From Candidatus Levyibacteriota bacterium (lineage in GTDB: Bacteria; Patescibacteriota; Microgenomatia; Levybacterales; UBA12049): DNA of 64,000 bases. Positions 2,485 to 63,604 of the stretch are shown here, piece by piece. How positions within the stretch are numbered: the stretch's first letter is position 1; every line of letters begins with the position of its first letter. The stretch covers positions 586,678-650,677 of the forward strand of contig CAVRKE010000002.1 in NCBI GenBank assembly GCA_963722305.1, written 5' to 3'. The notes under the pieces were generated by a model that was not told where the DNA came from, did not search any database, and saw nothing but the letters and a program-made list of their open reading frames with translations. A program made the position numbers and the translations under genes.

Positions 2485-4851
2485 ATGGGACCGAGACTGG
2501 AGATGGCGAACATTTTAGCTTTGTTGGTGCCCCTAACTGTAGTGGTGGTTGTATTATTACTTGTCGCCGGAGTTGTTGCCGGAGTAGGCTACCTTGTGCT
2601 GCTTTGGCTGCGAAACAGCGGCAGGGAAGGGCAATCCCTTGAGTCAACTCTTATTCAGGTAACCGTGCCCAGAGATAACGAGGTCAAAATTGACGCGGCG
2701 GAACAATTTTTTGCCAGTTTTGTCGGAATTAAAGCCAGCGGAATGTTCTCCTTCCTCAGATATAGGCCTCATATTGCTTTTGAAATAGTCGGTATGCCGG
2801 AAGACATCCGTTTTTATGTTTATGCCCCAAACAAATATAAAGATTTGGTGGAAAAGCAGATTAATGCATCATACCCGGACGCGGAAATAAAAGAAGTGGA
2901 CGAAAAAACTTCCAAAGAAGGCTATATTGTCGGCAACGAATACAACATTTTTTCCAAAGAGGGCAGAGTCGCTTTTGCCTCTTTTAAACTGGCCGATTCA
3001 AATTACAAACCAATTAAAGTTTTTAAAGATTTGGCGGTTGATCCGATGTCTTCTCTAACTTCGGTTTTGGCAAAGATGGGCCAGGGGGAGGGAGCGGCCA
3101 TTCAACTGATAATCTCCGGAGCGGATTCCGGCTGGAGCAAGAAAGGCCGAAAGTACATTGCTTCGACCAAAAAGGCCGAATCAAATCCGGAAACTGCCAA
3201 ATACTCGGCAGACCCGAAAGAATTGGAAGGAGTAGAAAATAAAATTTCCAAGCCGGGGTTTTACGCGGTGATAAGAGTCGTTGTCTCGTCAAGTTCACAA
3301 GAAGCGGCGGAGGCGCATTTGGCAAACATTGTCAGTGTTTTTGACCAGTTTAACGGTATCAATAAATTCAAGAAGAACAAGAATTGGATTAAAGGCAATT
3401 TTATCTCCGATTTCATTTACCGCTATTTGCCGGATCGGAATATGGCCATTTTGACCAGCGAAGAACTGGCCGGAATTTTCCACTTTCCTAATAAAAGCGT
3501 GGTGACGCCCCATATTCATTGGCTAAATGCCAAGCGGGCGCCGGCGCCGGCGCAAATCCCCAGCTCCGGCCTGTTCTTGGGTACCAGTACTTTTCGGGGC
3601 ATTGCTAAACCGGTTTACATTCAAAAAGACGATAGGAGGAGGCACATGTATGTGATTGGAAAAACCGGTGTCGGAAAATCGGAATTTTTGAAAGAGATGA
3701 TTTTGCAGGATATTAAAAATGGTGAAGGGGTTTGCTTTATCGACCCGCATGATACCATCGACAAACTGTTGCCACTAATTCCGCCGGAGCGGGCCGAAGA
3801 CGTTATCTTATTTGATCCCTCCGACACCCAACGGCCGATGGGTTTAAACATGCTGGAAGCGCAAACCGAAGAGGAGAAGCATTATATTGTCTCCTCAATT
3901 GTCGGGCTAATGTATAAACTGTATGATCCGAACAAAACCGGAATTATCGGACCAAGATTTGAGCATGCGATTAGAAACGCAATGCTCACAGTTATGTCGG
4001 AGAAGGGCAGTACCTTCATCGAAGTGGTTCGCGCCTTAACCGATGCCAATTTTGTCCAGGAATTGTTGCCGAAAGTGACCGACCCGATTGTCAGGCGCTA
4101 CTGGACCGACCAGATTGCCCAGACCAACGATTTCCATAAGTCCGAAGTGCTTGATTACATTGTTTCTAAATTCGGCCGTTTTGTCACCGATAAAATGATG
4201 CGTAATATAATCGGGCAGTCGGCCTCCGCTTTTGATTTTCGTAAAGTGATGGACGATGGTAAAATTCTGTTGGTTTCTTTGTCCAAAGGAAAAATCGGCG
4301 AGGAAAATGCCAGTTTCTTGGGGCTTATTTTGGTGCCGAAAATTTTGGTGGCAGCGATGAGTAGGCAAGATATTCCGGAAGAAAGCAGGCGTGATTTTTA
4401 TCTTTACGTTGACGAGTTTCAGAATTTTGCCACTCCCGATTTTGCTCAGATATTGTCGGAAGCAAGAAAATACAGACTCAACTTAGTTGTTGCCAACCAG
4501 TTTATCGGACAAATGGACGAAGACGTGAAAAACGCTATTTTTGGCAACGTTGGAACTTTAGTATCATTCAGGGTGGGAGTAACCGATGCAAATTATTTAG
4601 CTCATGAATTCCAGCCGGTATTCACCGAGGCAGATTTAATCAATGTTGATGTCTATAATGCCTACGTTAAAACCATTGTCCACAACGAGCCGATGAATCC
4701 TTTCTCGATGGATTTAACCCGCGATATGGCCAAAGCGGCAAGTATGGAAAACCCGCGCGTGGCGGAGCTAATTAGGGAACTCTCCAGACTAAAATACGGT
4801 AAAGAAATCAAAAGCCTCGAGGCCTCAATTGCACAGAGAGCCAGACTGTAG
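2485..4851 (+). CDS. membrane-anchored P-loop NTPase of the type IV coupling protein (VirD4/TraG/TraD, DUF87-like) superfamily
   Basis: 788 aa with an N-terminal TM helix. Walker A is VIGKTGVGKS. Walker B-like is LYVDEFQNF, followed by ARKYRLNLVVANQ, typical of the TraG/TraD C-terminal region. Confidence 0.55.
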   Translation: MGPRLEMANILALLVPLTVVVVVLLLVAGVVAGVGYLVLLWLRNSGREGQSLESTLIQVTVPRDNEVKIDAAEQFFASFVGIKASGMFSFLRYRPHIAFEIVGMPEDIRFYVYAPNKYKDLVEKQINASYPDAEIKEVDEKTSKEGYIVGNEYNIFSKEGRVAFASFKLADSNYKPIKVFKDLAVDPMSSLTSVLAKMGQGEGAAIQLIISGADSGWSKKGRKYIASTKKAESNPETAKYSADPKELEGVENKISKPGFYAVIRVVVSSSSQEAAEAHLANIVSVFDQFNGINKFKKNKNWIKGNFISDFIYRYLPDRNMAILTSEELAGIFHFPNKSVVTPHIHWLNAKRAPAPAQIPSSGLFLGTSTFRGIAKPVYIQKDDRRRHMYVIGKTGVGKSEFLKEMILQDIKNGEGVCFIDPHDTIDKLLPLIPPERAEDVILFDPSDTQRPMGLNMLEAQTEEEKHYIVSSIVGLMYKLYDPNKTGIIGPRFEHAIRNAMLTVMSEKGSTFIEVVRALTDANFVQELLPKVTDPIVRRYWTDQIAQTNDFHKSEVLDYIVSKFGRFVTDKMMRNIIGQSASAFDFRKVMDDGKILLVSLSKGKIGEENASFLGLILVPKILVAAMSRQDIPEESRRDFYLYVDEFQNFATPDFAQILSEARKYRLNLVVANQFIGQMDEDVKNAIFGNVGTLVSFRVGVTDANYLAHEFQPVFTEADLINVDVYNAYVKTIVHNEPMNPFSMDLTRDMAKAASMENPRVAELIRELSRLKYGKEIKSLEASIAQRARL

Positions 4852-5774: not shown

Positions 5775-6410
5775 ATGTCAGCAGATGGTGGATCTCCCGA
5801 TATTCAAGGTTCAACGGCTCCAGTTCCTTCTATAACAGAAGCTGGCGATTCAAAAACCCTTTTTAACCAAGCGCTTGTGGATAATCCTGGAAGAGCTTGG
5901 ATTATGGCAACATCTAATCTTAGAGCGGATACCGGAGCCAGTTCAGTTGGAGAAACTTCGCAAAGCCCATGGGTAGAAAAAGAGCAACAAGCCTTTGCGG
6001 CATTCGCAGAGAATGTAATTGCCAAGCCTGTGCCGGATGATCCAAATGAGCGGATAAAACTTCAGGCTGACATTGAGGGTCTTTTCGATTCAGCTAGGTT
6101 CAGGCCAGACGGTTATGAAAGTGGACATCCAAGCGAGTTGGCAATGCGAATTGCCGAAAAGATGATTGATGTTGATATGCAAATTCCCGGTAGAGGCGTT
6201 TTTGCGCTTCAGACGGCCGAGATGGCGCATATGCCTGAGGAACGAATCGAATCAATTCGTAAACAAATTTCGTCTCCTACGGCAGGTGAACTACTTCATC
6301 GGGCGGAACGGGCATATATTCTGGCGGCGAGAGATGTTATTAGAGCTCCATTTAGACTAGTAAGGCTAGTAAGTCGAAGGATAGGCCAAACTAAAAAAGG
6401 TTCCAAGTAG
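5775..6410 (+). CDS. hypothetical protein (higher GC than surroundings)
   Basis: ORF of 211 aa with no recognisable motif. Composition is A/E/R-rich. Confidence 0.4.
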   Translation: MSADGGSPDIQGSTAPVPSITEAGDSKTLFNQALVDNPGRAWIMATSNLRADTGASSVGETSQSPWVEKEQQAFAAFAENVIAKPVPDDPNERIKLQADIEGLFDSARFRPDGYESGHPSELAMRIAEKMIDVDMQIPGRGVFALQTAEMAHMPEERIESIRKQISSPTAGELLHRAERAYILAARDVIRAPFRLVRLVSRRIGQTKKGSK

Positions 6411-10785: not shown

Positions 10786-12067
10786 TTTAAAAAACAAAAA
10801 AATTCTGATTGTCGGAAAAGGAGTTGAGGGGGAAGCCGTTGGGAGATATCTGAAGAAGAAATTTCCAAATATTACTATTGATGCCGTTGATAAAAAAGAC
10901 GGTCAAGATTACCTTGAAAAGCAAAGCAATTACGATATTGTTATTAAGTCACCGAGTGTAAAACCCGAAGTAATCAGTATTCCTTATACAACCGCAACAA
11001 ACCTTTTTTTAGCTAATGCCAAAGGGAAAATTATCGGAGTCACGGGAACTAAAGGCAAAAGCACAACTGCAACGTTAATCTACGAAATGCTTCAGAAACA
11101 GGGCTTCGATGCATATTTAGGTGGCAATATAGGTGTTTCCCCTTTAGATTTTTTGGATAAATTAGATACTCAATCATGGACAGTACTTGAATTATCTAGT
11201 TTTCAGTTGCAAGACTTAAAAATAAGCCCACACATTGCTGTTTTATTAATGATTGTTCCGGAGCACTTAGATTATCATCAGTCATTAGAAAAATACATTG
11301 ACGCAAAGAGGAATATTTTAAGGTTTCAAACAGCAGTGGACTTTGCGGTGATTAATAAAGATTATCCTGCAAGTAATGAGTCTGACGTAGAAACGCCGGC
11401 ACGCGTTTTTAGAGTCAGCAGAGAAAAAGAAGATGACAACGGTTGTTTTGTAAGAAGTAAGTCCGTTTGGATAAAAAAAGACGAAGAAGAATTAGAGATT
11501 ATTAAACTTAGTGAAATAAAACTTCTTGGAGAACACAATTTAGAAAATGTTTGTGCAGCGGCAATGGCGGCTTATCTTGCCGGGGTTTCTGTAGTAAACG
11601 TCGCTGCAGTTTTAATAACGTTTAGCGGCTTGGAGCATCGGTTAGAATTTGTTAGAAAAGTCGGAGATGTCAGTTTTTTTAATGATTCCTTGGCTACTCT
11701 CCCTCAAGCTACAGTGGAAGCGCTGAAAACTTTAAAGGAGACGGAAACTTTAATAACGGGAGGATTTGACAGGGGTTTGGATTATAAAGATTTAGCTAAA
11801 GCAATTGTTCAGTCCGGCATTAAGATACTTATTCTGTTTCCAACTACAGGAGCAAGAATTTGGAAGGAAATTTGTGAAGAAACAGATAATCCTCCTGAGA
11901 AATTTGACGTAACTACAATGGAACAGGCAGTCAGAATTGCTTTTGTGGAGACTACTCCGGGTAAAATTTGTTTAATGTCGCCTGCGTCAGCCAGTTTTAA
12001 TCTTTTTAAAAACTATAAAGACCGCGGAGATCAGTTTAAGGAAGAAGTTCTTAAATTAAAATCCTAA
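10772..12067 (+). CDS. murD: UDP-N-acetylmuramoyl-L-alanine--glutamate ligase (MurD family; possibly L-Glu-adding MurD2)
   Basis: Mur ligase motifs: N-terminal KILIVGKGVEG Rossmann, ATP-binding GVTGTKGKSTTATL, and the central/C-terminal Mur ligase domains. Confidence 0.8.
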   Translation: MKLADLKNKKILIVGKGVEGEAVGRYLKKKFPNITIDAVDKKDGQDYLEKQSNYDIVIKSPSVKPEVISIPYTTATNLFLANAKGKIIGVTGTKGKSTTATLIYEMLQKQGFDAYLGGNIGVSPLDFLDKLDTQSWTVLELSSFQLQDLKISPHIAVLLMIVPEHLDYHQSLEKYIDAKRNILRFQTAVDFAVINKDYPASNESDVETPARVFRVSREKEDDNGCFVRSKSVWIKKDEEELEIIKLSEIKLLGEHNLENVCAAAMAAYLAGVSVVNVAAVLITFSGLEHRLEFVRKVGDVSFFNDSLATLPQATVEALKTLKETETLITGGFDRGLDYKDLAKAIVQSGIKILILFPTTGARIWKEICEETDNPPEKFDVTTMEQAVRIAFVETTPGKICLMSPASASFNLFKNYKDRGDQFKEEVLKLKS

Positions 12068-12081
12068 TTTCTAATTTTTAA

Positions 12082-13311
<1,230 letters not shown>

Positions 13312-28363: not shown

Positions 28364-28487
28364 GACACAAATACTTAGGGAAAAACTCGGGAATTTTGTT
28401 ATAATAAAAGAGTAATTTTTAATTTTAAATTTGTAATTTTCATTGAATTTGATTAGAAATTAGAAATTAAGAATTAGAAATTTTCTT

Positions 28488-29537
28488 ATGTACACACCTA
28501 AGTTCGTTATCACTAATAAAATTTTAAAAAACATTGGTAGCATTGAAGCTTCGAAAGAAGTCATCGACAACGCACCGCTTTTGCCGTATTTCGAAAAAGA
28601 ATTTCGAGAAGACGCAATGGTCAGGACTGTTCATTACGGCACGCATATCGAGGGCAACGAACTGAATTTGTCGGAAGCGGAAAAAGTGCTTTTAGGCCAG
28701 CAGATTACAGCCCGCGATAGAGATATTCAGGAGGTCATTAACTACCGTAAAGTAATGGATTATATCGGTAGCCTTAAAGCCCAGGAGACAAAAATTGATG
28801 AGGACGTCATCAAGCATTTGCATAAGCTAACGGTTGAAAAAATTTTGGCAGCGGAGCAATGTGGGGTGTTTCGTAAAACCCAGGTGGTAGTGAAAAACAG
28901 CACTACCGGGGAAATTTCTTTCCGGCCGCCAATGGCTGTCGCGATTTCCTTCCAGATTAAAAATCTGCTGGAATTTGTCGAAAGTGCCAAAGACGAAGAC
29001 GTCCATCCGGTGCTAAAGTCGGGGATTGTTCATTACGAACTGGTCAGAATTCATCCGTTTTTAGACGGCAACGGTCGGGTGGCCAGAGCTTTGGCAACCT
29101 TGATTTTGTACCAGGACGGTTATGATATCCGTAAGTTTTTCTCTTTGGAGGAATATTTTGACGAAGATGCCGCATCTTATTACGAAGCTTTGCAAAGTGT
29201 GGAGAAAGGCAATGGCGATCTAACGCATTGGCTGGAATATTTCACTTTAGGTCTTTCAATCGAACTGGCCAAAATTAGGGGAAAGGTGGAGGGAATTTCG
29301 GTTGACGCCAAAATCAAGGAAAAATTAGGCGGTAGCCCGATTATGCTCACCCCAAGACAACTTAAGATTATCGAATATATTCAAAAAATCGGCTATCTCC
29401 AGAATCAGGCATTCGAGCAATTGTTTCCGATGGTCTCGGAAGATACGGTGCTTAATGAAATAAAAGCATTGGTCAGTGCTGGTATTATTAAAAAACACGG
29501 AGTAACCAAGGGCGCACGGTACATCATGACAGATTAA
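28488..29537 (+). CDS. Fic family protein
   Basis: Canonical Fic motif HPFLDGNGRVAR and a C-terminal winged-helix region. Confidence 0.85.
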   Translation: MYTPKFVITNKILKNIGSIEASKEVIDNAPLLPYFEKEFREDAMVRTVHYGTHIEGNELNLSEAEKVLLGQQITARDRDIQEVINYRKVMDYIGSLKAQETKIDEDVIKHLHKLTVEKILAAEQCGVFRKTQVVVKNSTTGEISFRPPMAVAISFQIKNLLEFVESAKDEDVHPVLKSGIVHYELVRIHPFLDGNGRVARALATLILYQDGYDIRKFFSLEEYFDEDAASYYEALQSVEKGNGDLTHWLEYFTLGLSIELAKIRGKVEGISVDAKIKEKLGGSPIMLTPRQLKIIEYIQKIGYLQNQAFEQLFPMVSEDTVLNEIKALVSAGIIKKHGVTKGARYIMTD

Positions 29538-29564
29538 TGATGAATGATTAAGGATTAATGAATT

Positions 29565-31328
29565 ATGAAATTTGAAGATTTGTCAAAGTATTTTGAAAAG
29601 CTTGAGGCAACTTCATCTCGTCTTGCGTTGATAGAAATATTGTCGGAGCTGTTTAAAGATAAAAATATTCAAGATTCTGATGAAATCGAGAAAATTATTT
29701 ACTTATTGCAAGGCAGAATTGCACCTTTCTTTGAACCTATTGAGATGGGTATGGCAGAAAAAACAGTTGCTGAGTCAATAGCTCAAGCCTCATACGGTTT
29801 ATACAATAGAGATGCAGTTTTACGAAAATATAGCGAGCTAGGGGATTTAGGTAAGGTAGCACAAGAAATCGCAGGACAAAATCTTCAAAAAAGAAAACTT
29901 AAGCCTGGAAATTTAACTGTTACTCAAGTATTCGGTCGTTTAAAAGAAATTGCTCAGACTTCAGGCAATGGAACTGTTGAAACAAGAATCGAAATTGTTT
30001 CTCAAGCATTATTAATGAGAAGTGTTGATCCGTCTTCTGAAAAGTATATAGTCCGCATTTTGCTTGGAAATCTGAGGTTGGGTATCGGTGACCCGACAGT
30101 TCTTGACGCTTTGGCCACGGCAAAGTTAGGTGATAAGTCGCAAAGAAAACTGTTGGAAGGTGCATACAACCGCACTTCAGATTTGGGTTTGATTGCCAAA
30201 ACCTTGTGGGATAGTGGATTAGGAGCTGTTCAGAAGTTAGAGCTGAGGGTTGGTTACCCTGTCCGTTCGGAATTATGCGAGCGTTTGCCAAATCCCGAGA
30301 AAGTGATCGAAAAAATGGGGGAAGTAGATGTCCAGTATAAATATGACGGGTTTAGGGTGCAAATTCACAAAAACGACGACGAAGTGCGCATGTTCTCGCG
30401 CAATTTGGAAGAAATGACCCACATGTTCCCGGAACTTATCGTTGCTGTCAAAAAACAAATCAAAGCCAAAACCATCATTCTTGATTCGGAAGCCTTAGCA
30501 TACAATCCGGAATCGGAAGAATTTTTGCCGTTCCAAGAAACTACTAAACGAAGACGCAAACATGGAATCGAAGAAATGGCCAAAAGTCTGCCGCTGAAAG
30601 CCTTTGTTTTCGATATTCTCTATAAAGATGGAGAGTCGCTTATCGACAAACCATTACAGGAAAGAATGGCAGTTCTCAAAGCGGTTTTGCCGGAAGATGA
30701 TGTACTCATCAGAACAAAAAATCAGACCATCGCTGACGCGAAAGTCTTAAGTGTTTTACTGGAGGACGCCATTTCTAAAGGTTTGGAAGGATTGGTTGTC
30801 AAGAAACTGGAAAGCCCGTATGAAGCAGGGGCGCGCAATTTCAATTGGGTCAAACTCAAGCGGCATTCCTCAGGTGAATTAAATGACACTATTGATTGTG
30901 TAATCTTGGGTTATATTAGCGGGAAGGGTAAGCGCACGGTTTTTGGAGCCGGCGCCTTACTGGTTGGAGTTTATGACCAAGAAAAGGACGAATTTGTCTC
31001 AGTCTCAAAGATCGGAACGGGACTGACGGACGAGGAGTGGAGAGAAGTGCACAAAAGAGCGGATAAAATCAGTCTTCAGCAAAAACCGGCCAGAGTCAGC
31101 TCAAATATTATTCCGTCGGTTTGGATAAAGCCGGAGATTGTTATCGAAATTCTGGCGGATGAAATTACCCGTTCACCAATCCATACTGCCGGTAAAACCG
31201 AGACAGAAGCGGGTTATGCCCTCAGATTTCCGCGTTTGGTTTCTTTCAGGGGTTCGGACAAAAAAGCCGAAGACGCAACCAGCGTGAAGGAATTAATTGA
31301 AATGTACTCTCAGCAAGGAAAACAGTAA
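29565..31328 (+). CDS. ATP-dependent DNA ligase (archaeal/eukaryal-type with N-terminal DNA-binding domain)
   Basis: Motif I KYDGFRVQIH (KxDGxR). Downstream adenylation and OB motifs (EGLVVK, FAFDILY). Confidence 0.85.
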   Translation: MKFEDLSKYFEKLEATSSRLALIEILSELFKDKNIQDSDEIEKIIYLLQGRIAPFFEPIEMGMAEKTVAESIAQASYGLYNRDAVLRKYSELGDLGKVAQEIAGQNLQKRKLKPGNLTVTQVFGRLKEIAQTSGNGTVETRIEIVSQALLMRSVDPSSEKYIVRILLGNLRLGIGDPTVLDALATAKLGDKSQRKLLEGAYNRTSDLGLIAKTLWDSGLGAVQKLELRVGYPVRSELCERLPNPEKVIEKMGEVDVQYKYDGFRVQIHKNDDEVRMFSRNLEEMTHMFPELIVAVKKQIKAKTIILDSEALAYNPESEEFLPFQETTKRRRKHGIEEMAKSLPLKAFVFDILYKDGESLIDKPLQERMAVLKAVLPEDDVLIRTKNQTIADAKVLSVLLEDAISKGLEGLVVKKLESPYEAGARNFNWVKLKRHSSGELNDTIDCVILGYISGKGKRTVFGAGALLVGVYDQEKDEFVSVSKIGTGLTDEEWREVHKRADKISLQQKPARVSSNIIPSVWIKPEIVIEILADEITRSPIHTAGKTETEAGYALRFPRLVSFRGSDKKAEDATSVKELIEMYSQQGKQ

Positions 31329-31347: not shown

Positions 31348-31740
31348 CTAGTGCGAAGCATTACCGGCGCGTGTGCGAGTAGCAGGGAAAGCAGTAGGAG
31401 TTCTTCTAAGTAAGCCCCTTATTCTTGCCAAGACGCCTCGTCTTGGAGCAAAGGTAACGATATCTCTGGCAGAGAATTCTGGTCTTAACCTGGGTTGTTG
31501 TTCTATTCGTTCTTCTGTAAATTGTCTTCTGCCTTCTCGATCAAGAACTAGTTTCCCATGCTCATCGCGGGTTAAATGGTGCACCACTACTGCGGATACT
31601 TCTCTAACGCCTTCAGGCGTGATATCCACGGGACGATAAATAGCAGTAACAGTCCTTTCTAGCGTAGATACAGATGGTTTAGTAGACAATGTTAGATCAG
31701 CTCCAGCTAGCCTTCCTTCGAAATATTTTTCCCCTGCCAT
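31348..31740 (-). CDS. hypothetical Arg-rich protein
   Basis: ORF of 130 aa in a GC-rich stretch. A plus-strand ORF (31373..31639) overlaps it, so coding status is uncertain. Confidence 0.3.
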   Translation of the reverse strand: MAGEKYFEGRLAGADLTLSTKPSVSTLERTVTAIYRPVDITPEGVREVSAVVVHHLTRDEHGKLVLDREGRRQFTEERIEQQPRLRPEFSARDIVTFAPRRGVLARIRGLLRRTPTAFPATRTRAGNASH

Positions 31741-31912: not shown

Positions 31913-33274
31913 ATGGAATACGTAACAGATTTACATTTACATTCAAAATATAGCCGAGCTGTAAGCAAAGACATGAACCTTTATAATATGGCTTTGTGGG
32001 GAACTAAGAAGGGCTTTGACGTGTTAACAACCGGTGACTGGACGCATCCACTCTGGCTTAGAGAAATCAAGCAGGAGTTAGTTGAGGACACAGCGGGAAT
32101 CTTCAAATTCAAGGATAATTTGACGTTTAAAACCCGCTTTATCCTCACGGTGGAAATTTCCAGCATCTATTCCCAGGGCGGAAAAGTCCGCCGGATTCAT
32201 AACCTGGTTTTTTCACCTTCAATTCAAACTTCGGAAAAAATCGCCGCAGAACTCATTAAGCGGGGCTGCAATTTAACTTCCGACGGCAGGCCGATTATCG
32301 GTTTATCATCAATTCAACTGATGGAACTGATTTATTCAATCGATAAAAATGTTTTATTAGTTCCTTGTCACGCTTGGACGCCGTGGTTTGCTTTGTATGG
32401 CTCAAATTCCGGTTTTGATTCAATTGAGGAATGTTTCGGCGAGTACGCGGACAAAATTTACGGTGTTGAAACCGGTCTTTCCAGTGACCCCTACATGAAC
32501 TGGCAGATAAAAGAGTTGGAAAACCGTTCACTCATCTCAACTTCCGATGCGCATTCACTGCCAAAAATGGGCAGAGAAGCGACTGTCTTTGTAGACAAAG
32601 ACACAAATCCCAAATCCAAAATCCCAAATCACAAAATTACCTATCAGGACATCACAGATGCGATTAAGCAAAAACCGGAAGGCAGGCTCAAAATCGGCTA
32701 CACCATTGAATTTTATCCGGAAGAAGGAAAATACCATTACACCGGACACCGCAACTGCAGTTTTGTCCAGGACCCTAAAACTACCAGAGCAGAAGGCAAC
32801 ATTTGCCCGGTTTGCCACCGGCCACTGACGGTTGGGGTGATGCACCGGGTTGAGGAGCTGGCTAAAGCTACCCAGTTTCCGGATGAAGTGTTTAAGTCAA
32901 ACGCAAACGGGGTAAAATGGATTTTGGACCCAAGCAAGAAACACCCGCCGTTTGTCAAACTGGTGCCGCTAAACGAAATTATTGCCGAGAGTCTTTATTC
33001 CACCGTTTCAGCGCAAAAAGTGAAAGACCTTTATGACAGTCTTTGTAGAACATTCGGTTCGGAAATGGAAATTCTCCTTAAAATCTCCAGACAAGAGCTG
33101 GAAAAAGAAGCCGGGCCAAGGGTGGCCGAGGGGGTGGATAAGGTCAGACGGGGAGAGATTGTGATTGCCCCCGGTTACGACGGCCAATACGGAATTGTCA
33201 AAATCTGGGAAGACAGAAAAGTAGTCGAGAAGTCGCAAAAAGCAGCGGAAAGCCAATTGGGAATTGACTTTTAA
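31913..33274 (+). CDS. PHP-domain phosphoesterase family protein
   Basis: Start MEYVTDLHLHSKYSRA (PHP metal-binding HxH). The annotated N-terminal extension from 31787 is a translated repeat element. An in-frame heptamer-repeat insertion lies at 32604-32636. Confidence 0.65.
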   Translation: MEYVTDLHLHSKYSRAVSKDMNLYNMALWGTKKGFDVLTTGDWTHPLWLREIKQELVEDTAGIFKFKDNLTFKTRFILTVEISSIYSQGGKVRRIHNLVFSPSIQTSEKIAAELIKRGCNLTSDGRPIIGLSSIQLMELIYSIDKNVLLVPCHAWTPWFALYGSNSGFDSIEECFGEYADKIYGVETGLSSDPYMNWQIKELENRSLISTSDAHSLPKMGREATVFVDKDTNPKSKIPNHKITYQDITDAIKQKPEGRLKIGYTIEFYPEEGKYHYTGHRNCSFVQDPKTTRAEGNICPVCHRPLTVGVMHRVEELAKATQFPDEVFKSNANGVKWILDPSKKHPPFVKLVPLNEIIAESLYSTVSAQKVKDLYDSLCRTFGSEMEILLKISRQELEKEAGPRVAEGVDKVRRGEIVIAPGYDGQYGIVKIWEDRKVVEKSQKAAESQLGIDF

Positions 33275-35196: not shown

Positions 35197-35526
35197 ATGA
35201 AATCGGTTCAACAAATACTTAAAAATTTTAATCCTACCAAGGACAAATATATTTCCCGGGAATTCCAGTCGTTCGGAATTTATTTGGCCGAAGAAATGAA
35301 TGACTATAAAAACAGGGGAATGTGGATTAAACTGGCCAAAACCAACCACCGCTCGGTCTTGGAAGAAGTTTTATCTTTTGTTAAAGACTCAACCGCCGAC
35401 AACAAAATAGCGTTATTCCTCTGGAAGTTGAAACAGATAAAATCAAATCCCAAATCCCAAATCACAAATCCCAAGGGGGAATCCCAAACCCTAGATTCCA
35501 AATCACAAAAAAATGAGCAAGTTTGA
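35197..35526 (+). CDS. hypothetical protein with heptamer-repeat-encoded C-terminus
   Basis: ORF. The last ~25 codons are encoded by the CCAAATC/ACAAATC tandem repeats (35441-35510). Confidence 0.3.
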   Translation: MKSVQQILKNFNPTKDKYISREFQSFGIYLAEEMNDYKNRGMWIKLAKTNHRSVLEEVLSFVKDSTADNKIALFLWKLKQIKSNPKSQITNPKGESQTLDSKSQKNEQV

Positions 35527-35860
35527 TTTAAGAGAAAGAATTTTGAAGTTTGTTTTGGCTGTAATTGACTTAACAAAAAAATTACCCCAAGATAGGACAA
35601 ATGCAGTTCTGATAAATCAGATAATACGCTGCGTAACCTCAATTGGAGCTAATTACGAGGAGGCTGATGGTGCAAGAAGTAAGAAAGAATTTGTATCAAC
35701 AATGGGGATTGTTAAAAAGGAAGCTAAGGAAACCAAGTATTGGTTGGAAATTATAAAAATGTCATTACCGCCTTTTAAAGATAGAATAGAAATTCTCCAA
35801 GTAGAAAATGAAGAATTAATTAAAATTGTCGCTAAAATAATAATTAACAGTAATAATTGA
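35513..35860 (+). CDS. four-helix-bundle protein (23S rRNA intervening-sequence protein family)
   Basis: About 115 aa with the conserved IGANYEEA...KETKYWLE blocks of the 23S-IVS four-helix-bundle family. Confidence 0.7.
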   Translation: MSKFDLRERILKFVLAVIDLTKKLPQDRTNAVLINQIIRCVTSIGANYEEADGARSKKEFVSTMGIVKKEAKETKYWLEIIKMSLPPFKDRIEILQVENEELIKIVAKIIINSNN

Positions 35861-35894
35861 GATTTGGTCATTGGGTTTTGTGATTTAGAAAATT

Positions 35895-58608: not shown

Positions 58609-58914
58609 GTGAGGAGAAGGCCCATTGAATTTTTCCGATTTATTTCGGAAGAGTTTAATGGGAAGATTTTTAATCTACTCATAATGCCGATAATGGATGC
58701 CTAGGAGGCTTTGACCGAGGAAGGACGCATACGGCGGCGATACTCGTTGGGGAGGTGCCATAAACCTTTGATCCAGCGGTTTCCGAATGGGGTAACCCAC
58801 CAGCTTGTCTGGTGGCCAAAAATGAACTTGGACTCGTAAGAGTTCATATAACTTTTGGCCGGGTACGGCGTGAACTGAAACATCTAAGTAACGCCAGGAA
58901 TATAAATCATCCGA

Positions 58915-58946
<32 letters not shown>

Positions 58947-60743
58947 CAGTCTAAACTTGTGCGCAGCACAAGAAATCACAAATCACAATGACCAAATCTC
59001 AATTAATTTTGGGATTTGGATTTTGGAGCTTGGGGTTTCTCGCGTTGCGCGCGAGGGTTGCAGGGCAGACGATATTCGATTAAATTCAGGTAGCAGAAGG
59101 ATCCGGAATGGTCCTCCACAGAGAGTGAAAGACTCGTACGCGAAACTTGAATTTACGATAGTCTGTTCCTAAGTACCATGGGGTACGGTGAAACCCTGTG
59201 GGAATCTGGGGCGGCCACGTTCCAAGACTAAATATCAAAGTCTACCGATAGTGAACTAGTACCGCGAGGGAAAGGTGAAAAGCACCCCGGGAGGGGAATG
59301 AAATAGAACTGAAATTGTCGGCTAACAAGCAGGCAGAGTCGAGCGCAAGCGAGATGATGCCGTGCCTATTGAAGAATGAACCGGTGAGTTATTGATTGCA
59401 GTATAGCTTAACCAAGCTTGTCTTGGGGAGGCGTAGTGAAAGCGTGCCCTAACCGGGCGATTAATTGCAGTCATTAGACCCGAAACTGGGTGAGCTAACC
59501 TTGAGCAGGGTGAATGTTGACGAAAGTTAGCAGGAGGCCCGAACTCGTAGCAGCAGCAATTGCTTGAGATGACTTGAGGTTAGGGGCAATATGCCAAACG
59601 AACCCAGAGATAGCTGGTTCTCCCCGAAATATATTTTGGTATAGCGGTTATTTGTAATACGCTGAGGTAGAGCACTGGATGATCATTTGCGTCGCAAGAC
59701 GTAGGGATTAACCAAACTCCGAATGCAGCCGTATGTTTAATAACTAGTCAGACTCGTCGGGCTAAGCCGATGGGTCAAAAGGGAAACAGCCCAGACTCCC
59801 ATCTAAGGCCTCTAAATAAAGGCTAAGTTTTGAACGAAGTCAAATTTCATAGACAACCAGGAAGTTGGCTTAGAAGCAGCCATCTTTTAAAGAAAGCGTA
59901 ACAGCTCACTGGAGGATGATATTTGGCGCGAAAAATTTATCGAGGATTAAGCCTTTTGCCGAAGTTGGAGTTCCTATTTTATTAATTTAAGGTAGGGAGG
60001 TAGGGGAGCGTTCTATTTGCAGTGAAGCCGAGGTGTAAACCGAGGTGGAGCGGATAGAAGTGAGAATGCCGGTATGAGTAGCGAAATGCATGTGAGAATC
60101 GTGCACGCCGAATATCCAAGGTTTCCTCCGCAATGTAAGTCAGCGGAGGGTTAGTCGGTCCTAAGGGTGTGCCTCGTTAAAGGGGCGTAGCCCGATGGAT
60201 AAGTCGTTGAAATTCGACTACAGAATGTGAACCGTTCAAGGGAAGGACGAAAGTGGAAGAGCTGAGTCCCGTTCGCGGGATTTAAGCAGTAAGATAGTGA
60301 TAACTGGTAAATCCGTTATCGTGTTTAATCAAGCTGCAAATAAAAGGGATTAGTAATAATTCCGATTTAGTAGCTTTCAGTTTCCGAGAAAATTTTCATT
60401 GAGTCCCAAGAGCAATCGAAGGACAAATTCATATTTTTCCGTACCGCAAACCGACACAGGTGGATTGGTCGAGAAGACTAAGGCGATCGAGTGACAGATG
60501 TTCAAGGAACTCGGCAAAAAAGCTAGGCGTAACCTATGGGAGATGCCTTGTCCTGATTAGTTTCAGGATTGCAACAAAAGTTTATTTACCGACTGTTTAT
60601 CTAAAACACAGGTCCCTGCAAAGCCGAAAGGCAAAGTATAGGGGCTGACGCCTGCCCAGTGCTGGTAAGTCAAATATCGTGAATAAAACGTCGCAAGATG
60701 TCAGTTTGTGATATAAGCTCCAGTAAACGGCAGCAGTAACTAT

Positions 60744-61452
60744 AAGAAATTGTAGTTATAAAATTTAGCTATATGCTGGAAAATCTGTACCGCAACTGTT
60801 TAAAACAGACGGTTGAAGTATCTGGCGTTACTATGTTATATTTAATGTAGTGAAAAAACGTCCAGCGCAGACAATCAGCAGGAAAGACCTTGATCGGAAG
60901 AATTTAGGCTATTTTATAGCGGGGTTTGTAGAAGGAGAAGGGAGTTTTAATGTATCACTTCGTAAAAAAAGTGATTATAAGGTTAAATGGCAAATTGTTT
61001 TAAGTTTTAATGTTTCCCAAAAAGATCCATCAGTTCTTTTTATAATAAAAAAAGAACTAGGATGTGGAATAATTAAAACAAGAAAAGATGGTTTGCATTC
61101 TCTAGATATTACAAACTCTCAAGAAATAGTCAAAAAAGTTATTCCATATTTCACAAGATATCCTTTACTATCTAATAGTAAAATTAATAACTTTAATATA
61201 TTCTGTAAAATCTCAAAGCTTGTTGAAAGCGGAGAGCATAGAGATATTAAGGGATTAAAAAGAATTTTACTTTTAAGAGAAAAATTAAATGAAGGTAAAG
61301 GAAGAACAAGGAAATATGGATATAATGATATATTTCCGATTGAGGAATCCTCAGAGACTATACGCTAAACCCGCTTATAAGCGGTGATGATATAGTCCGA
61401 CCTCATGGACGACCATGAGACTCTGTATTCAATCAGAGCAAGTAACAATGTG
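60744..61452 (+). mobile_element. group I intron 1 in 23S (E. coli position ~1917 region) with LAGLIDADG ORF
   Basis: The 5' exon ends ...GTAACTAT. The R element TCAGAGACTATACG overlaps the ORF end. The S element GATGATATAGTCCGACC is present. The intron ends ...CAATGTG before the 14-nt exon AACTGTTCTATGGT. Confidence 0.65.
60850..61368 (+). CDS. LAGLIDADG homing endonuclease (intron-encoded)
   Basis: Single-motif LAGLIDADG: LGYFIAGFVEGEGSF. Confidence 0.8.
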   Translation: MKKRPAQTISRKDLDRKNLGYFIAGFVEGEGSFNVSLRKKSDYKVKWQIVLSFNVSQKDPSVLFIIKKELGCGIIKTRKDGLHSLDITNSQEIVKKVIPYFTRYPLLSNSKINNFNIFCKISKLVESGEHRDIKGLKRILLLREKLNEGKGRTRKYGYNDIFPIEESSETIR

Positions 61453-61466
61453 AACTGTTCTATGGT

Positions 61467-61712
61467 AACACTTCGTTGCTTTAGAAAAAGTGTTTTAGAA
61501 ATCTAACTATATGCTGGAATAACTCAGAATCCAACAGTACCAGAAATGGTAAAAATCTGTTTGGTGGAGTCAATCAGCAGGGAAGATCCCGATCTCTCGG
61601 GAAACCCTCAGAGACTAAACGTTAGAGTCGCCATTCAGGCGATAAGATATAGTCCGACCTCCGATGCGAATCGGAGAATCTAGATTTGCAAGATCTAGGA
61701 TTAACATAATTG
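61467..61712 (+). other. group I intron 2 in 23S (E. coli ~1931 region), ORF-less
   Basis: R element GGGAAACCCTCAGAGACTAAACG and S element ATAAGATATAGTCCGACC. Ends ...AACATAATTG immediately before exon AGCGAAGTTCC. Confidence 0.6.
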
Positions 61713-62183
61713 AGCGAAGTTCCTTGTCGGGCGAGTTCCGACCCGCACGAAAGGCAGAACGAGTAAATAACTGTCTTGAACATCTACTCGGCGAAATTGA
61801 GATGGCCGTGAAGACGCGGCCTAATTGTACATGGACAAAAAGACCCCGGGAGCTTTACTGTAGCTTGGCATTTGAAAGTATATTCTAACTGTTTAGAATA
61901 GGAGGGAGCTTTGGCAATAGTGAAATACCTCTCTTTGGAATATGCAATCATTACCTCTAGCCGCATAAAAATTCGGCAGAGGGACAGTGTCTGGCGGGCA
62001 GTTTAACTGGGGCGATTGACTCCTACAATGCAACGGAGTCGTATAAAGGTTGGCTAACTGCGGATAGAAATCGCAGTGATAGTGCAAACGCATAAGCCAG
62101 CTTGACTGCGAGACCTACAAGTCGAGCAGGTGGGAAACCAGATGTTAGTGATCCTGTATGGCGTAGTGGTACGCCTACAGCTT

Positions 62184-62216
<33 letters not shown>

Positions 62217-62247
62217 GATCGCATCCAAGCGTCCACAGCGACGATGC

Positions 62248-62305
<58 letters not shown>

Positions 62306-62320
62306 CCGGCTGTTCGCCGG

Positions 62321-62355
<35 letters not shown>

Positions 62356-62363
62356 AAGACAGT

Positions 62364-63146
62364 AAAGTTGACCGTTGCTGTCTTCCTTCAAGCGTTTTGA
62401 TACCCTAAAGAGGGAATTGAAGGGCTCTTAATGAGTATAAATCTAGCTAAATGCTGGAAACTCCGAGAATCTCAGGCTACTTGACAAATTAAAAAGAATA
62501 GAGTTATTCTATCTCTATGTCAAGTAAAAATGTCTTGAGTGCGGACAATCAGCAGGCAACTAGGCAAGTGTCAGATGAATATCTAGCAGGTTTTACTGAT
62601 GGAGAAGGTTGTTTCTATGTGGGATTTGGTAAAAGAAACGATTTGCCGCTAAAATGGCAAGTGATTACCGAATTTCACGTCAGCCAAAATCCGGGCGGGA
62701 GAAACCTTTTAGAGTTGTTCAAAAAACGTCTCGATTGCGGTTATTTAAAGCCCAATCATGCTAAAAATCCAAAAGATAAATCTTGGATTTTGATAGTTAA
62801 AGATAGGGATGATCTAAGAAAAAAGGTAATTCCTTTTTTCAAGAATAATCCGCTTTTAACTTCAAAACAACAAGATTTTATAATTTTTTCAAAAGTGCTT
62901 CAAATTATCGAACAAGGTAAGCATTTAAGAAAGACAGGCTTGAAAGAAATTGCAGAATTAGTTTTTAGCAGTCAGAGAACAACTAATAAAAGATATTCAA
63001 AACAAATGATACTTTCTTAGTACCTCAGAGACTATGTGTTAGACCCGCCAATGAGGCGAGGAAGATATAGTCCGAACTGCATAGCGATATGTAGAGCGTA
63101 GTAGAAATACTTACGCCCTCCGAAAAAACGGAGAGTAACATAATTG
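62364..63146 (+). mobile_element. group I intron 3 in 23S (E. coli position ~2593 region) with LAGLIDADG ORF
   Basis: The 5' exon ends ...GTAAGACAGT. R is CCTCAGAGACTATGTG and S is GAAGATATAGTCCGAAC. Ends ...AACATAATTG before exon TCGGTCTCTATCC. Confidence 0.65.
62517..63020 (+). CDS. LAGLIDADG homing endonuclease (intron-encoded)
   Basis: Motif YLAGFTDGEGCF. Paralogous to the 60850 ORF (shared KWQ..., VIPFF blocks). Confidence 0.8.
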   Translation: MSSKNVLSADNQQATRQVSDEYLAGFTDGEGCFYVGFGKRNDLPLKWQVITEFHVSQNPGGRNLLELFKKRLDCGYLKPNHAKNPKDKSWILIVKDRDDLRKKVIPFFKNNPLLTSKQQDFIIFSKVLQIIEQGKHLRKTGLKEIAELVFSSQRTTNKRYSKQMILS

Positions 63147-63279
63147 TCGGTCTCTATCCTGTACAATCGTTGATATTTGAGAAGATTCGTCCCTAGTACG
63201 AGAGGACTGGGATGAGGGAATCCCTGGTGTGCCGGTTGTTTCCGAATAGGAGCAGCGCCGGGTAGCTAGATTCCCAACC

Positions 63280-63310
<31 letters not shown>

Positions 63311-63604
63311 GGCCTTCAAGATAAGATATCGTGTGCCCGTAAGGGTACTAAAACCCCTTCTAGACTAGGAGGTTGATAGGCGGACAGTGTAAGCGCCGTA
63401 AGGTGTTTAGCTTACCCGTACTAATGGTTTTTAGAGTAGATTGAAAATGATATTTCTCCTCACCTTTAAGGAGCCAAGTTTGACTTGGCGACGCAATCCT
63501 CCTAAGATTGCTCCGTGAGCCGTGTTCGAATAGAACTGAAAAGGCGAACGGTAAAATCGGGAGGATAAAGAGCGCCTTGAACATTAACAATTGAAGATGG
63601 AAAT

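Follow-up and report, generated by a model that had tools for sequence, protein, structure and literature searches.

Inverted 7-nt repeat arms common to a 23S rRNA hairpin and a PF05635 gene cassette outside rRNA in a Levyibacteriota genome

Intervening sequences (IVSs) of ribosomal RNA (rRNA) genes, with their conserved open reading frame (ORF), have been known since about 1990, and both their origin and the role of the encoded protein are unexplained. The stem of a classical IVS is excised by RNase III without religation. In the Coxiella IVS, tandem heptameric repeats occupy the 5' stem just before the S23p ORF, RNase III cuts at the first repeat, and the number of repeats differs between strains (PMC4990558). 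A study of rRNA genes of the Candidate Phyla Radiation (CPR) describes short, ORF-less, non-intron insertions, which it suggests to be IVS-like, and 22 PF05635 ORFs within rRNA insertions (Tsurumaki et al. 2024, PMC11270868, Table S4). Here we analysed a window (the whole stretch of DNA under study) of 64,000 nt from Candidatus Levyibacteriota bacterium (GCA_963722305.1, contig CAVRKE010000002.1, positions 586,678-650,677 forward), with its closest homologs in Levybacteria/Microgenomates, in which a hairpin of the 23S rRNA gene shares 33 nt with one arm of a cassette at 35.5 kb that carries a gene for a PF05635 four-helix-bundle protein. The best explanation of the data as a whole, which we hold to be probable with some reserve, is that both copies are arms within one family of imperfect palindromes built of 7-nt units, represented in the 23S gene by an IVS-type insertion and at 35.5 kb by the PF05635 cassette.

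The 19-mer CAATGACCAAATCTCAATT occurs at exactly two sites in the window, 35855-35873 (-) and 58986-59004 (+), where shuffled sequences give a chance expectation of 0.01 matches even at <=3 mismatches. In the alignment, the match extends to 35854-35886 (+) against the reverse complement of 58973-59005, with 31/33 identical positions and 2 mismatches, and reads TAATTGAGATTTGGTCATTG[GGTT/TGAT]TTGTGATTT; its longest exact word is a 20-mer, which spans three different 7-nt units plus the non-repeat bases AATTA. An earlier inspection of the letters alone (the sequence-only reading) had placed this match at 35860-35893 and 58977-59010 with about 3 mismatches; the match itself holds, with coordinates shifted by about 4 nt and 2 mismatches, not 3. 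It does not consist of CAAAT repeats devoid of a unique core, though the core is itself built of common 7-nt words (TGACCAA, ATCTCAA). As aligned, the match assigns the two sites to a common repeat family and dialect (unit sequence), without showing descent of either from the other. The two sites comprise the following features:

35444..35512, + strand: upstream (5') arm of the cassette, made of the C/A-rich 7-nt units AAATCCC/AAATCAC, with direct-repeat family D1 and inverted repeats I1-I4 and I6; it ends at the PF05635 ATG.
35513..35860, + strand: PF05635 gene, 115 aa (PF05635, E = 3.3e-18; TIGR02436, E = 2.3e-24; PDB 2RLD, E = 7e-16).
35854..35890, + strand: downstream (3') arm, G/T-rich, TTGAGAT TTGGTCA TTGGGTT TTGTGAT TT; it contains the TGA stop and ends 5 nt before the acylphosphatase ATG.
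58956..59055, + strand: ORF-less hairpin replacing a small domain I hairpin (RF02541 274-296), closed at its base by a 12-bp G+C-rich clamp; the stem consists of 7-nt units and the apex is UUAAUU at 59003-59008.
58973..59005, + strand: the 33-nt 23S copy, in the 5' arm of that hairpin, AAATCAC AAATCAC AATGACC AAATCTC AATTA; the reverse complement of the cassette 3' arm.

The 115-aa gene is the sole PF05635 gene in the window and scores above both family cut-offs (PF05635, 66.3 bits against 33.8, over profile positions 6-104 of 106; TIGR02436, 85.7 bits against 24), its nearest solved relative being 2RLD. The 35.5 kb copy lies, as had been proposed, beside a four-helix-bundle gene of the IVS family, and it overlaps the stop codon of that gene. 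The inverted repeats I1-I4 and I6 around the ORF are 72-94% complementary, and a 16-nt pairing between the arms (35459-35474 / 35871-35886, 94% complementary) is present in both the minimum-energy and the centroid folds of the 481-nt locus. A period-7 tract (35438-35477) marks the upstream arm, and the motif TTGAGAnTTGGTCATTGnnnnTTGTGATTT in the 3' arm is unchanged across 4 orthologous cassettes. The cassette does not lie within an rRNA gene: it is located 23 kb from the 23S gene, between a 109-aa gene and the acylphosphatase gene, both of which share the orientation of the PF05635 gene, and its neighbours also include pth and a YibE_F-family protein. On the + strand around the cassette, scanning revealed neither a sigma-70-like promoter nor a terminator. 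No reverse transcriptase or template/variable repeat pair adjoins the PF05635 gene here or in the 10-kb syntenic loci. In a functional search for the cassette neighbours PADLOC gave no match for either protein, and the upstream 109-aa protein had no match in Pfam, NCBIfam or PADLOC. Close PF05635 homologs on contigs of ~1 kb were considered as possible rRNA fragments; all of them show the same two-gene arrangement outside rRNA.

Relatives of this genome have the same site in filled and in empty form. In L257 and L258, the upstream gene stops 1-4 nt before the acylphosphatase (acyP) ATG and neither arms nor ORF are present. The protein identities to the window are as follows:

L257, empty: pth 84%, upstream gene 94%, acyP 84%, PF05635 protein absent.
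L258, empty: pth 77%, upstream gene 90%, acyP 67%, PF05635 protein absent.
L001, cassette: pth 58%, upstream gene 72%, acyP 55%, PF05635 protein 76%.
L007, cassette: pth 58%, upstream gene 66%, acyP 45%, PF05635 protein 79%.
L008, cassette: pth 56%, upstream gene 62%, PF05635 protein 70%.

Since L257 and L258 are empty where the window is filled, the ~447 nt of 35444-35890 behave as a single presence/absence unit, and in the alignment with these two relatives the boundaries of the empty site coincide with the arm ends, as in a mobile insertion. A check for target-site duplication revealed no evident direct repeat at the cassette ends. The cassette-bearing relatives are far more distant in their host genes (pth 56-58%, acyP 45-55%), with PF05635 proteins 70-79% identical to that of the window. 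This patchy distribution of a cassette less diverged than its hosts would fit lateral spread to a preferred site as well as repeated loss. Moreover, the cassette arm is kept in orthologous cassettes of genomes that differ by >40% in housekeeping proteins, so that it is old and predates this genome.

When the cassette is present, the last ~10 codons of the upstream gene are replaced by a heptad-encoded tail (KSQIPNPKSQ...) that overlaps the PF05635 start, the upstream arm doubling as coding sequence for the extended C-terminal tail of the 109-aa protein. Among 890 homologs of this protein, nearly all are 89-92 aa long. The gene, at 35197-35526, encodes a conserved ~90-aa Levybacteria protein, and many of the homologs are 80-94% identical to it. 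One variant from a near-identical genome (P0099) is 100% identical up to residue ~75, beyond which the heptad tract is read in a different frame (…KIKSQIPNHKSQGGIPNPRFQITKK); this suggests an indel within that tract or close to it, or a sequencing error.

The bracket of inverted arrays proved to be general among the PF05635 genes that we sampled. Each of the 11 such genes at 9 CPR loci was preceded by a C/A-rich array and followed by a G/T-rich one, and 11/23 period-7 tracts of these loci lay <=140 nt from gene ends, a zone covering 3.4% of the sequence (p = 7e-11). The dialect varies by paralog and clade (AAATCCC, TTAATGA, ATAGATA, CAATCTC, AAATTCC), and the arms co-vary: the energy of the duplex between upstream and downstream arrays was -28.0 kcal/mol within a dialect vs -18.9 between dialects (p = 3e-9). 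We also examined a sample from cultured organisms, made up of ten hits on PLSDB plasmids from 5 phyla (six cyanobacteria, Chlorohelix, Treponema, Chondrinema, Bernardetia, Monoglobus). Period-7 arrays adjoined the gene at 10/10 of these loci, with 19/23 tracts <=200 nt from gene ends (15% of sequence, p = 2e-12) and zero tracts of period 5, 6 or 8. At loci arrayed on both sides, the upstream and downstream units are reverse-complementary (e.g. GTGATTA x11 vs TAATCAC, CAGTGAC vs GTCACTG x13). In all, the PF05635 genes sampled, which come from six phyla, are without exception bracketed by inverted 7-nt arrays. As for genomic placement, the gene is co-oriented with both neighbours in 12/14 loci with clearly annotated neighbours, and on the plasmids of cultured bacteria (L262-L271) it is often located between genes for subunits of one system: between RND adaptor and permease genes, between hsdS and hsdR, between csx2 and cas1, and between DUF1156 and Swt1-HEPN genes (twice, in two phyla). 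Such placement may explain the reported associations of the family with CRISPR and defence loci (PMC10910872).

At the other site, the 23S gene was called at 58668-62404. Its Rfam alignment shows that the hairpin at RF02541 274-296, which we take to be helix 15 of 23S domain I, is enlarged in its loop by 84 nt. The palindromic insertion in domain I that the sequence-only reading had noted is therefore real. The segment 58956-59055 folds as one 39-bp hairpin (-50.7 kcal/mol, z = -6) with a best self-period of 7, and it sits before helix 25, at none of the known IVS sites (helices 9, 25 and 45). Rfam has no family matching the hairpins.

We surveyed this helix in related 23S genes by a metagenome scan with a conserved 23-mer just 5' of it, which returned 120 loci; 118 23S genes with both anchors (scan loci plus the window and L101) form the denominator. 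The helix held <=39 nt in 104/118 and inserts of >=60 nt in 14/118 (~12%), 13 of them being >=90 nt. Every one of the 14 long inserts is an ORF-less hairpin, with stems of 22-73 bp (37-73 bp among those of >=90 nt) and z-scores from -5.6 to -10.4. Seven have a dominant period of 7, five of 8 and one of 9, and the period of L151 (63 nt) is 10. Each long insert has its own dialect, that of L101 being the window's. Four loci with the same downstream 23S flank (L175, L191, L228, L240) have the 14-nt hairpin only, and L150, L153, L165, L186 and L230 have inserts of 104-157 nt that differ in sequence. Since relatives that share 23S flanks can have the 14-nt hairpin alone, the presence of inserts is sporadic.

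Three side observations concern the 23S locus. L101, although binned as Gammaproteobacteria, is a 23S fragment with the window's helix-15 dialect and tRNA-23S arrangement, and the contig may be mis-binned. The ORFs within the 23S gene of the window are LAGLIDADG endonucleases, with two LAGLIDADG_1 ORFs and a group I intron (60850-61368, 62517-63020, 61457-61676, 63176-63324). Finally, a fragment matching the 3' part of the large-subunit rRNA model was found beyond the called 23S end at 62404, and the true 23S gene probably extends to ~63324, with a second intron.

Hairpins of this type demonstrably give rise to further copies within a genome, at the tips of rRNA helices, in rRNA spacers and in ordinary intergenic spacers. 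L172 has a near-duplicate of its own insert, G+C-rich base clamp included, at the tip of helix 25 (model position 583/584), a classical IVS site. L186 carries a copy in the 23S-5S spacer, and L143 and L243 hold partial copies. On a Patescibacteria contig (L015), two palindromes of ~225 nt with 4 mismatches between them stand in inverted orientation at 3340-3630 and 5800-6090, in the unrelated spacers hisS/signal peptidase and LytR/der; such near identity indicates recent intragenomic spread. The ends of these L015 copies show no evident direct repeat.

The shared word extends far beyond this lineage. A search for TTGGTCATTGNNNNTTGTGATTT in species-representative genomes found it in at least 118 places and, among the matches listed, ~34 were in CPR, ~30 in Desulfobacterota-type genomes and ~10 in Planctomycetes, with others in Aminicenantes, Omnitrophota, Gammaproteobacteria and Chloroflexi. 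Among the same listed matches, 68/119 instances run on as TTG-periodic tracts, against a background of 3.6%, and about half have a complementary arm nearby. A word found in so many places across many phyla means that the match between the two sites indicates membership of a family, not an rRNA origin of the 35.5 kb locus. In two Desulfobacterota-type loci (L009 ~4580-4650; L070 (-) ~6330-6400), the hairpin loops share a conserved non-repeat core of ~45 nt (…CCTTTGAAACTCAAATCGAC…GTCGATGGCC…), which may represent a small RNA or the core of an element.

Within the window, 8 period-7 tracts were detected, vs 0-3 for each of the periods 5, 6, 8 and 9, and 0 in shuffles. Those away from the cassette and the 23S hairpin include:

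12057-12092 (TAATTTC), 28411-28483 (TAATTTT/AGAAATT hairpin) and 29529-29576 (GATTAAT): tracts of other dialects in short spacers, mostly ending just before start codons.
32597..32637, + strand: in-frame tract in a 453-aa PHP-type gene, CAAATCC CAAATCC AAAATCC CAAATCA C, in the cassette's dialect, encoding NPKSKIPNHK.

None of the three spacer tracts has a PF05635 gene near it. The in-frame tract was considered as an insertion and rejected as such, because the L001 ortholog has a tract of equal length (2840-2880) in another dialect, every unit beginning with G instead of C; this difference looks like concerted change. The same ortholog carries an additional in-frame, heptad-encoded insertion of 16 aa at 2307-2350. 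The spacer between the ligase and PHP-type genes holds, in the window, a 129-aa ORF (31348-31740, -) without Pfam match and, in L001, a second PF05635 gene with its own repeat arms. An AdoCbl-II riboswitch aptamer (53.7 bits) lies at 54-131 of the window.

Under the explanation that we favour, the family would consist of imperfect palindromes of tandem ~7-nt units, whose 5' arm is C/A-rich and whose 3' arm is G/T-rich. Its 23S member would extend the tip of a domain I helix in the manner of an IVS that lacks an ORF, and its 35.5 kb member would be a discrete ~447-nt cassette whose arms surround the PF05635 gene between two co-oriented housekeeping genes. The shared 33 nt would stem from a common family origin, through copying or gene conversion among members, and not from excision of the locus from the rRNA operon. 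The cassette, having no promoter of its own, would be transcribed with the host operon and depend on host transcription. In the transcript, the arms would pair as an imperfect duplex of considerable length, 16 bp at the cassette and 39 bp in the 23S, a substrate of RNase III type as in classical IVSs, and the element would then be removed from the host RNA, or tolerated in it, without religation. A cut that is not rejoined would do no harm at the tip of an rRNA helix or between cistrons, and it is at such places that the elements are found. Given the same build as the Coxiella IVS and these cut-tolerant positions, the arms most likely act as an RNA duplex processed by host RNase III. It is possible that the Avd-like PF05635 protein binds the arrays.

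Several observations weigh against this explanation. What the sequences show is the anatomy of the elements, the filled and empty sites, the co-varying arms, the spread of the family and the copies within genomes; RNase III cleavage, fragmentation of the 23S rRNA and any role of the protein are points that we infer from sequence, not from RNA. Around the ORF the arms complement each other imperfectly, the fold of the whole 481-nt locus is no better than those of shuffles (z = -0.8), and the duplex z-scores are weak in several orthologs. As the upstream arm lies within the coding tail of the 109-aa gene, cleavage there would yield a non-stop mRNA. A search for an RNase III signature among the window ORFs gave no candidate, the rest of the genome lying outside that search. 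A PF05635 ORF, which the sequence-only reading had suggested seeking in other copies of the rRNA operon, was found neither in the window rRNA operon nor in the 120 sampled related 23S loci. Among the matches listed, 115/118 other-genome loci with the shared word have no PF05635 gene in the ~8-kb locus, so that the hairpins mostly exist without the gene nearby. PF05635 genes beside the shared word in other phyla were sought and turned up at only 3/118 of the listed loci, even at relaxed thresholds, with a profile built from CPR-type sequences that could miss distant members. Lastly, outside the common 19-nt word the window's two copies agree at 13/22 remaining positions, and 5/119 unrelated instances among the matches listed resemble the 23S arm as closely as the window cassette does; on this comparison, the two copies are only marginally more alike than unrelated family members.

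The alternative that survives best, though we think it unlikely, is direct derivation, in which the 23S hairpin is the cassette minus its ORF, or the cassette is an IVS that moved out, the two copies being mutually closest. The reverse complement of the 23S hairpin is colinear with the ORF-less cassette (score 41, vs 19 in the other orientation), and the 23S apex AAAA|TTAATTGA corresponds to the A-run before the cassette ATG plus the last codon and stop of the ORF (TAATTGA), which lends weak support to an ORF-deleted origin of the hairpin. Both copies also speak one dialect, other tracts of the window using different ones. The extra alignment score, however, comes from one arm only: the by-eye impression that both 23S arms match the cassette was ruled out by the alignment, in which the other arm is ~75% identical in either orientation, a value that we read as generic heptad similarity. 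The 20-mer including AATTGA is also common to orthologous cassettes, in keeping with direct derivation, whereas the five equally close instances from unrelated genomes, the age of the cassette arm and the zero ORF-bearing insertions at this helix in the survey speak against it. The proposal of the sequence-only reading that the 35.5 kb locus derives from, or exchanges with, an rRNA IVS therefore stands in part: the locus has IVS anatomy and is a discrete insertion, the 23S gene holds an ORF-less hairpin of the same type, and such hairpins copy within genomes. Its derivation from the rRNA operon is not supported, for the same reasons that count against direct derivation.

We regard it as improbable that the arrays are primarily DNA or RNA binding sites for a protein, with the hairpin secondary, whether that protein is an Avd-like PF05635 pentamer (autoregulation or element maintenance) or a global regulator. 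Avd binds nucleic acid and a reverse transcriptase. PF05635 is homologous to Avd (PMC10053308), and palindromic sets of tandem hepta-/octanucleotide repeats in the Geobacter genome have been read as regulator binding sites (PMC2700814). The association of arrays with PF05635 genes in all sampled phyla, with locus-specific units, would suit such a function; yet most family hairpins among the matches listed have no PF05635 gene within ~4 kb, and loci that encode proteins 40-60% identical to each other have very different units.

Absence of homology, with independent simple-sequence repeats arising by replication slippage from favoured heptamers and the match being convergence, seems to us quite improbable. 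An exact 20-mer over three units plus AATTA is present twice where 0.01 is expected, and neither inverted, co-varying arms nor near-identical copies of 145-225 nt at separate sites are products of local slippage. These points outweigh, in our judgement, the several unrelated period-7 dialects in short window spacers, the units evolving in concert within a tract (the PHP-type tract, window vs L001), the recurrence of the shared word in many phyla and the published statement that heptanucleotides are the commonest long-unit simple repeats in bacteria (PMC4679880). Ordinary terminators or mRNA-stabilising stem-loops (REP-like), with the 23S copy as a neutral expansion segment retained in mature rRNA, are very unlikely, for although many members stand right after stop codons or in short spacers and all fold stably, no U-run follows the arms, the + strand terminator scan was empty, the arm abuts the next start codon, and a terminator would be harmful within an rRNA gene, as it would between genes for subunits of a single complex.

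Returning to the favoured family of 7-nt-unit palindromes, the same repeat-built stem is found with an ORF outside rRNA, where comparison with an empty site shows a clean insertion, and without an ORF inside 23S, so that the question of what rRNA IVSs are becomes more testable. The predictions are that RNase III cuts the arms in both contexts, that copies spread within genomes, and that the protein binds the arrays or depends on them. This explanation would also account for the presence of PF05635 genes within CRISPR, restriction-modification and efflux operons, between genes for subunits. More tentatively, and with doubt prevailing, PF05635 genes and inverted 7-nt arrays might form one mobile cassette across bacteria, riding on host transcripts, cut out through an RNase III stem without religation and settling only at rRNA helix tips and intercistronic spacers; classical IVSs would then be the special case noticed first, and ORF-less hairpins, including that of the 23S gene and many repeats of the short tandemly repeated repetitive (STRR) type, non-autonomous relatives.

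Compared with known systems, the closest in lineage are the short insertions of CPR rRNA genes, and the window's insertion is likewise <200 nt, ORF-less and non-intron; the accessible part of that study (PMC11270868) makes no mention of a 7-nt palindromic build, of multi-site copies in one genome or of sequence in common with PF05635 cassettes outside rRNA. Heptanucleotide repeats, among them TAACTGA repeats, are reported in many bacteria (PMC4679880). Like the elements described here, STRR-type heptanucleotide repeats have a 7-nt unit, are intergenic, often stand right before start codons, are occasionally in frame and are patchy across phyla. TTGGTCA, one unit of the shared element, is reportedly also the unit of a cyanobacterial STRR described by Mazel et al. 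in 1990. Reports on heptanucleotide repeats treat direct arrays or putative regulator sites, and we found none linking inverted arrays to PF05635 or to rRNA helix tips. Miniature inverted-repeat elements and REPINs (MITE/REPIN) are likewise short, non-coding and palindromic, with several near-identical copies per genome and a related ORF-bearing form; unlike theirs, the arms here are tandem arrays and not unique terminal repeats, no target-site duplication was seen, and no transposase or RAYT partner was identified, though no search aimed at transposases was made. Avd of diversity-generating retroelements (DGRs) belongs to a homologous fold family and, unlike in DGRs, the gene here has no adjacent reverse transcriptase or template/variable repeats. 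In the literature that we covered, which is incomplete, we found no report of a general inverted 7-nt bracket around PF05635 genes outside rRNA, of filled/empty-site polymorphism of PF05635 cassettes, or of arms common to PF05635 cassettes and ORF-less rRNA hairpins; looking up the sequences themselves in that literature turned up primers only. The nearest counterparts in build are the classical 23S IVSs (the helix-45 IVS of Coxiella burnetii with S23p; Leptospira). Unlike in these, the ORF-bearing copy here, known from sequence alone, lies outside rRNA between protein genes, and the rRNA copy is ORF-less and lies at RF02541 274-296 instead of helix 9, 25 or 45. Like them, the elements described here have terminal inverted repeats that can pair into a long stem, the PF05635 ORF of the cassette lying in its loop, and are sporadic among relatives.

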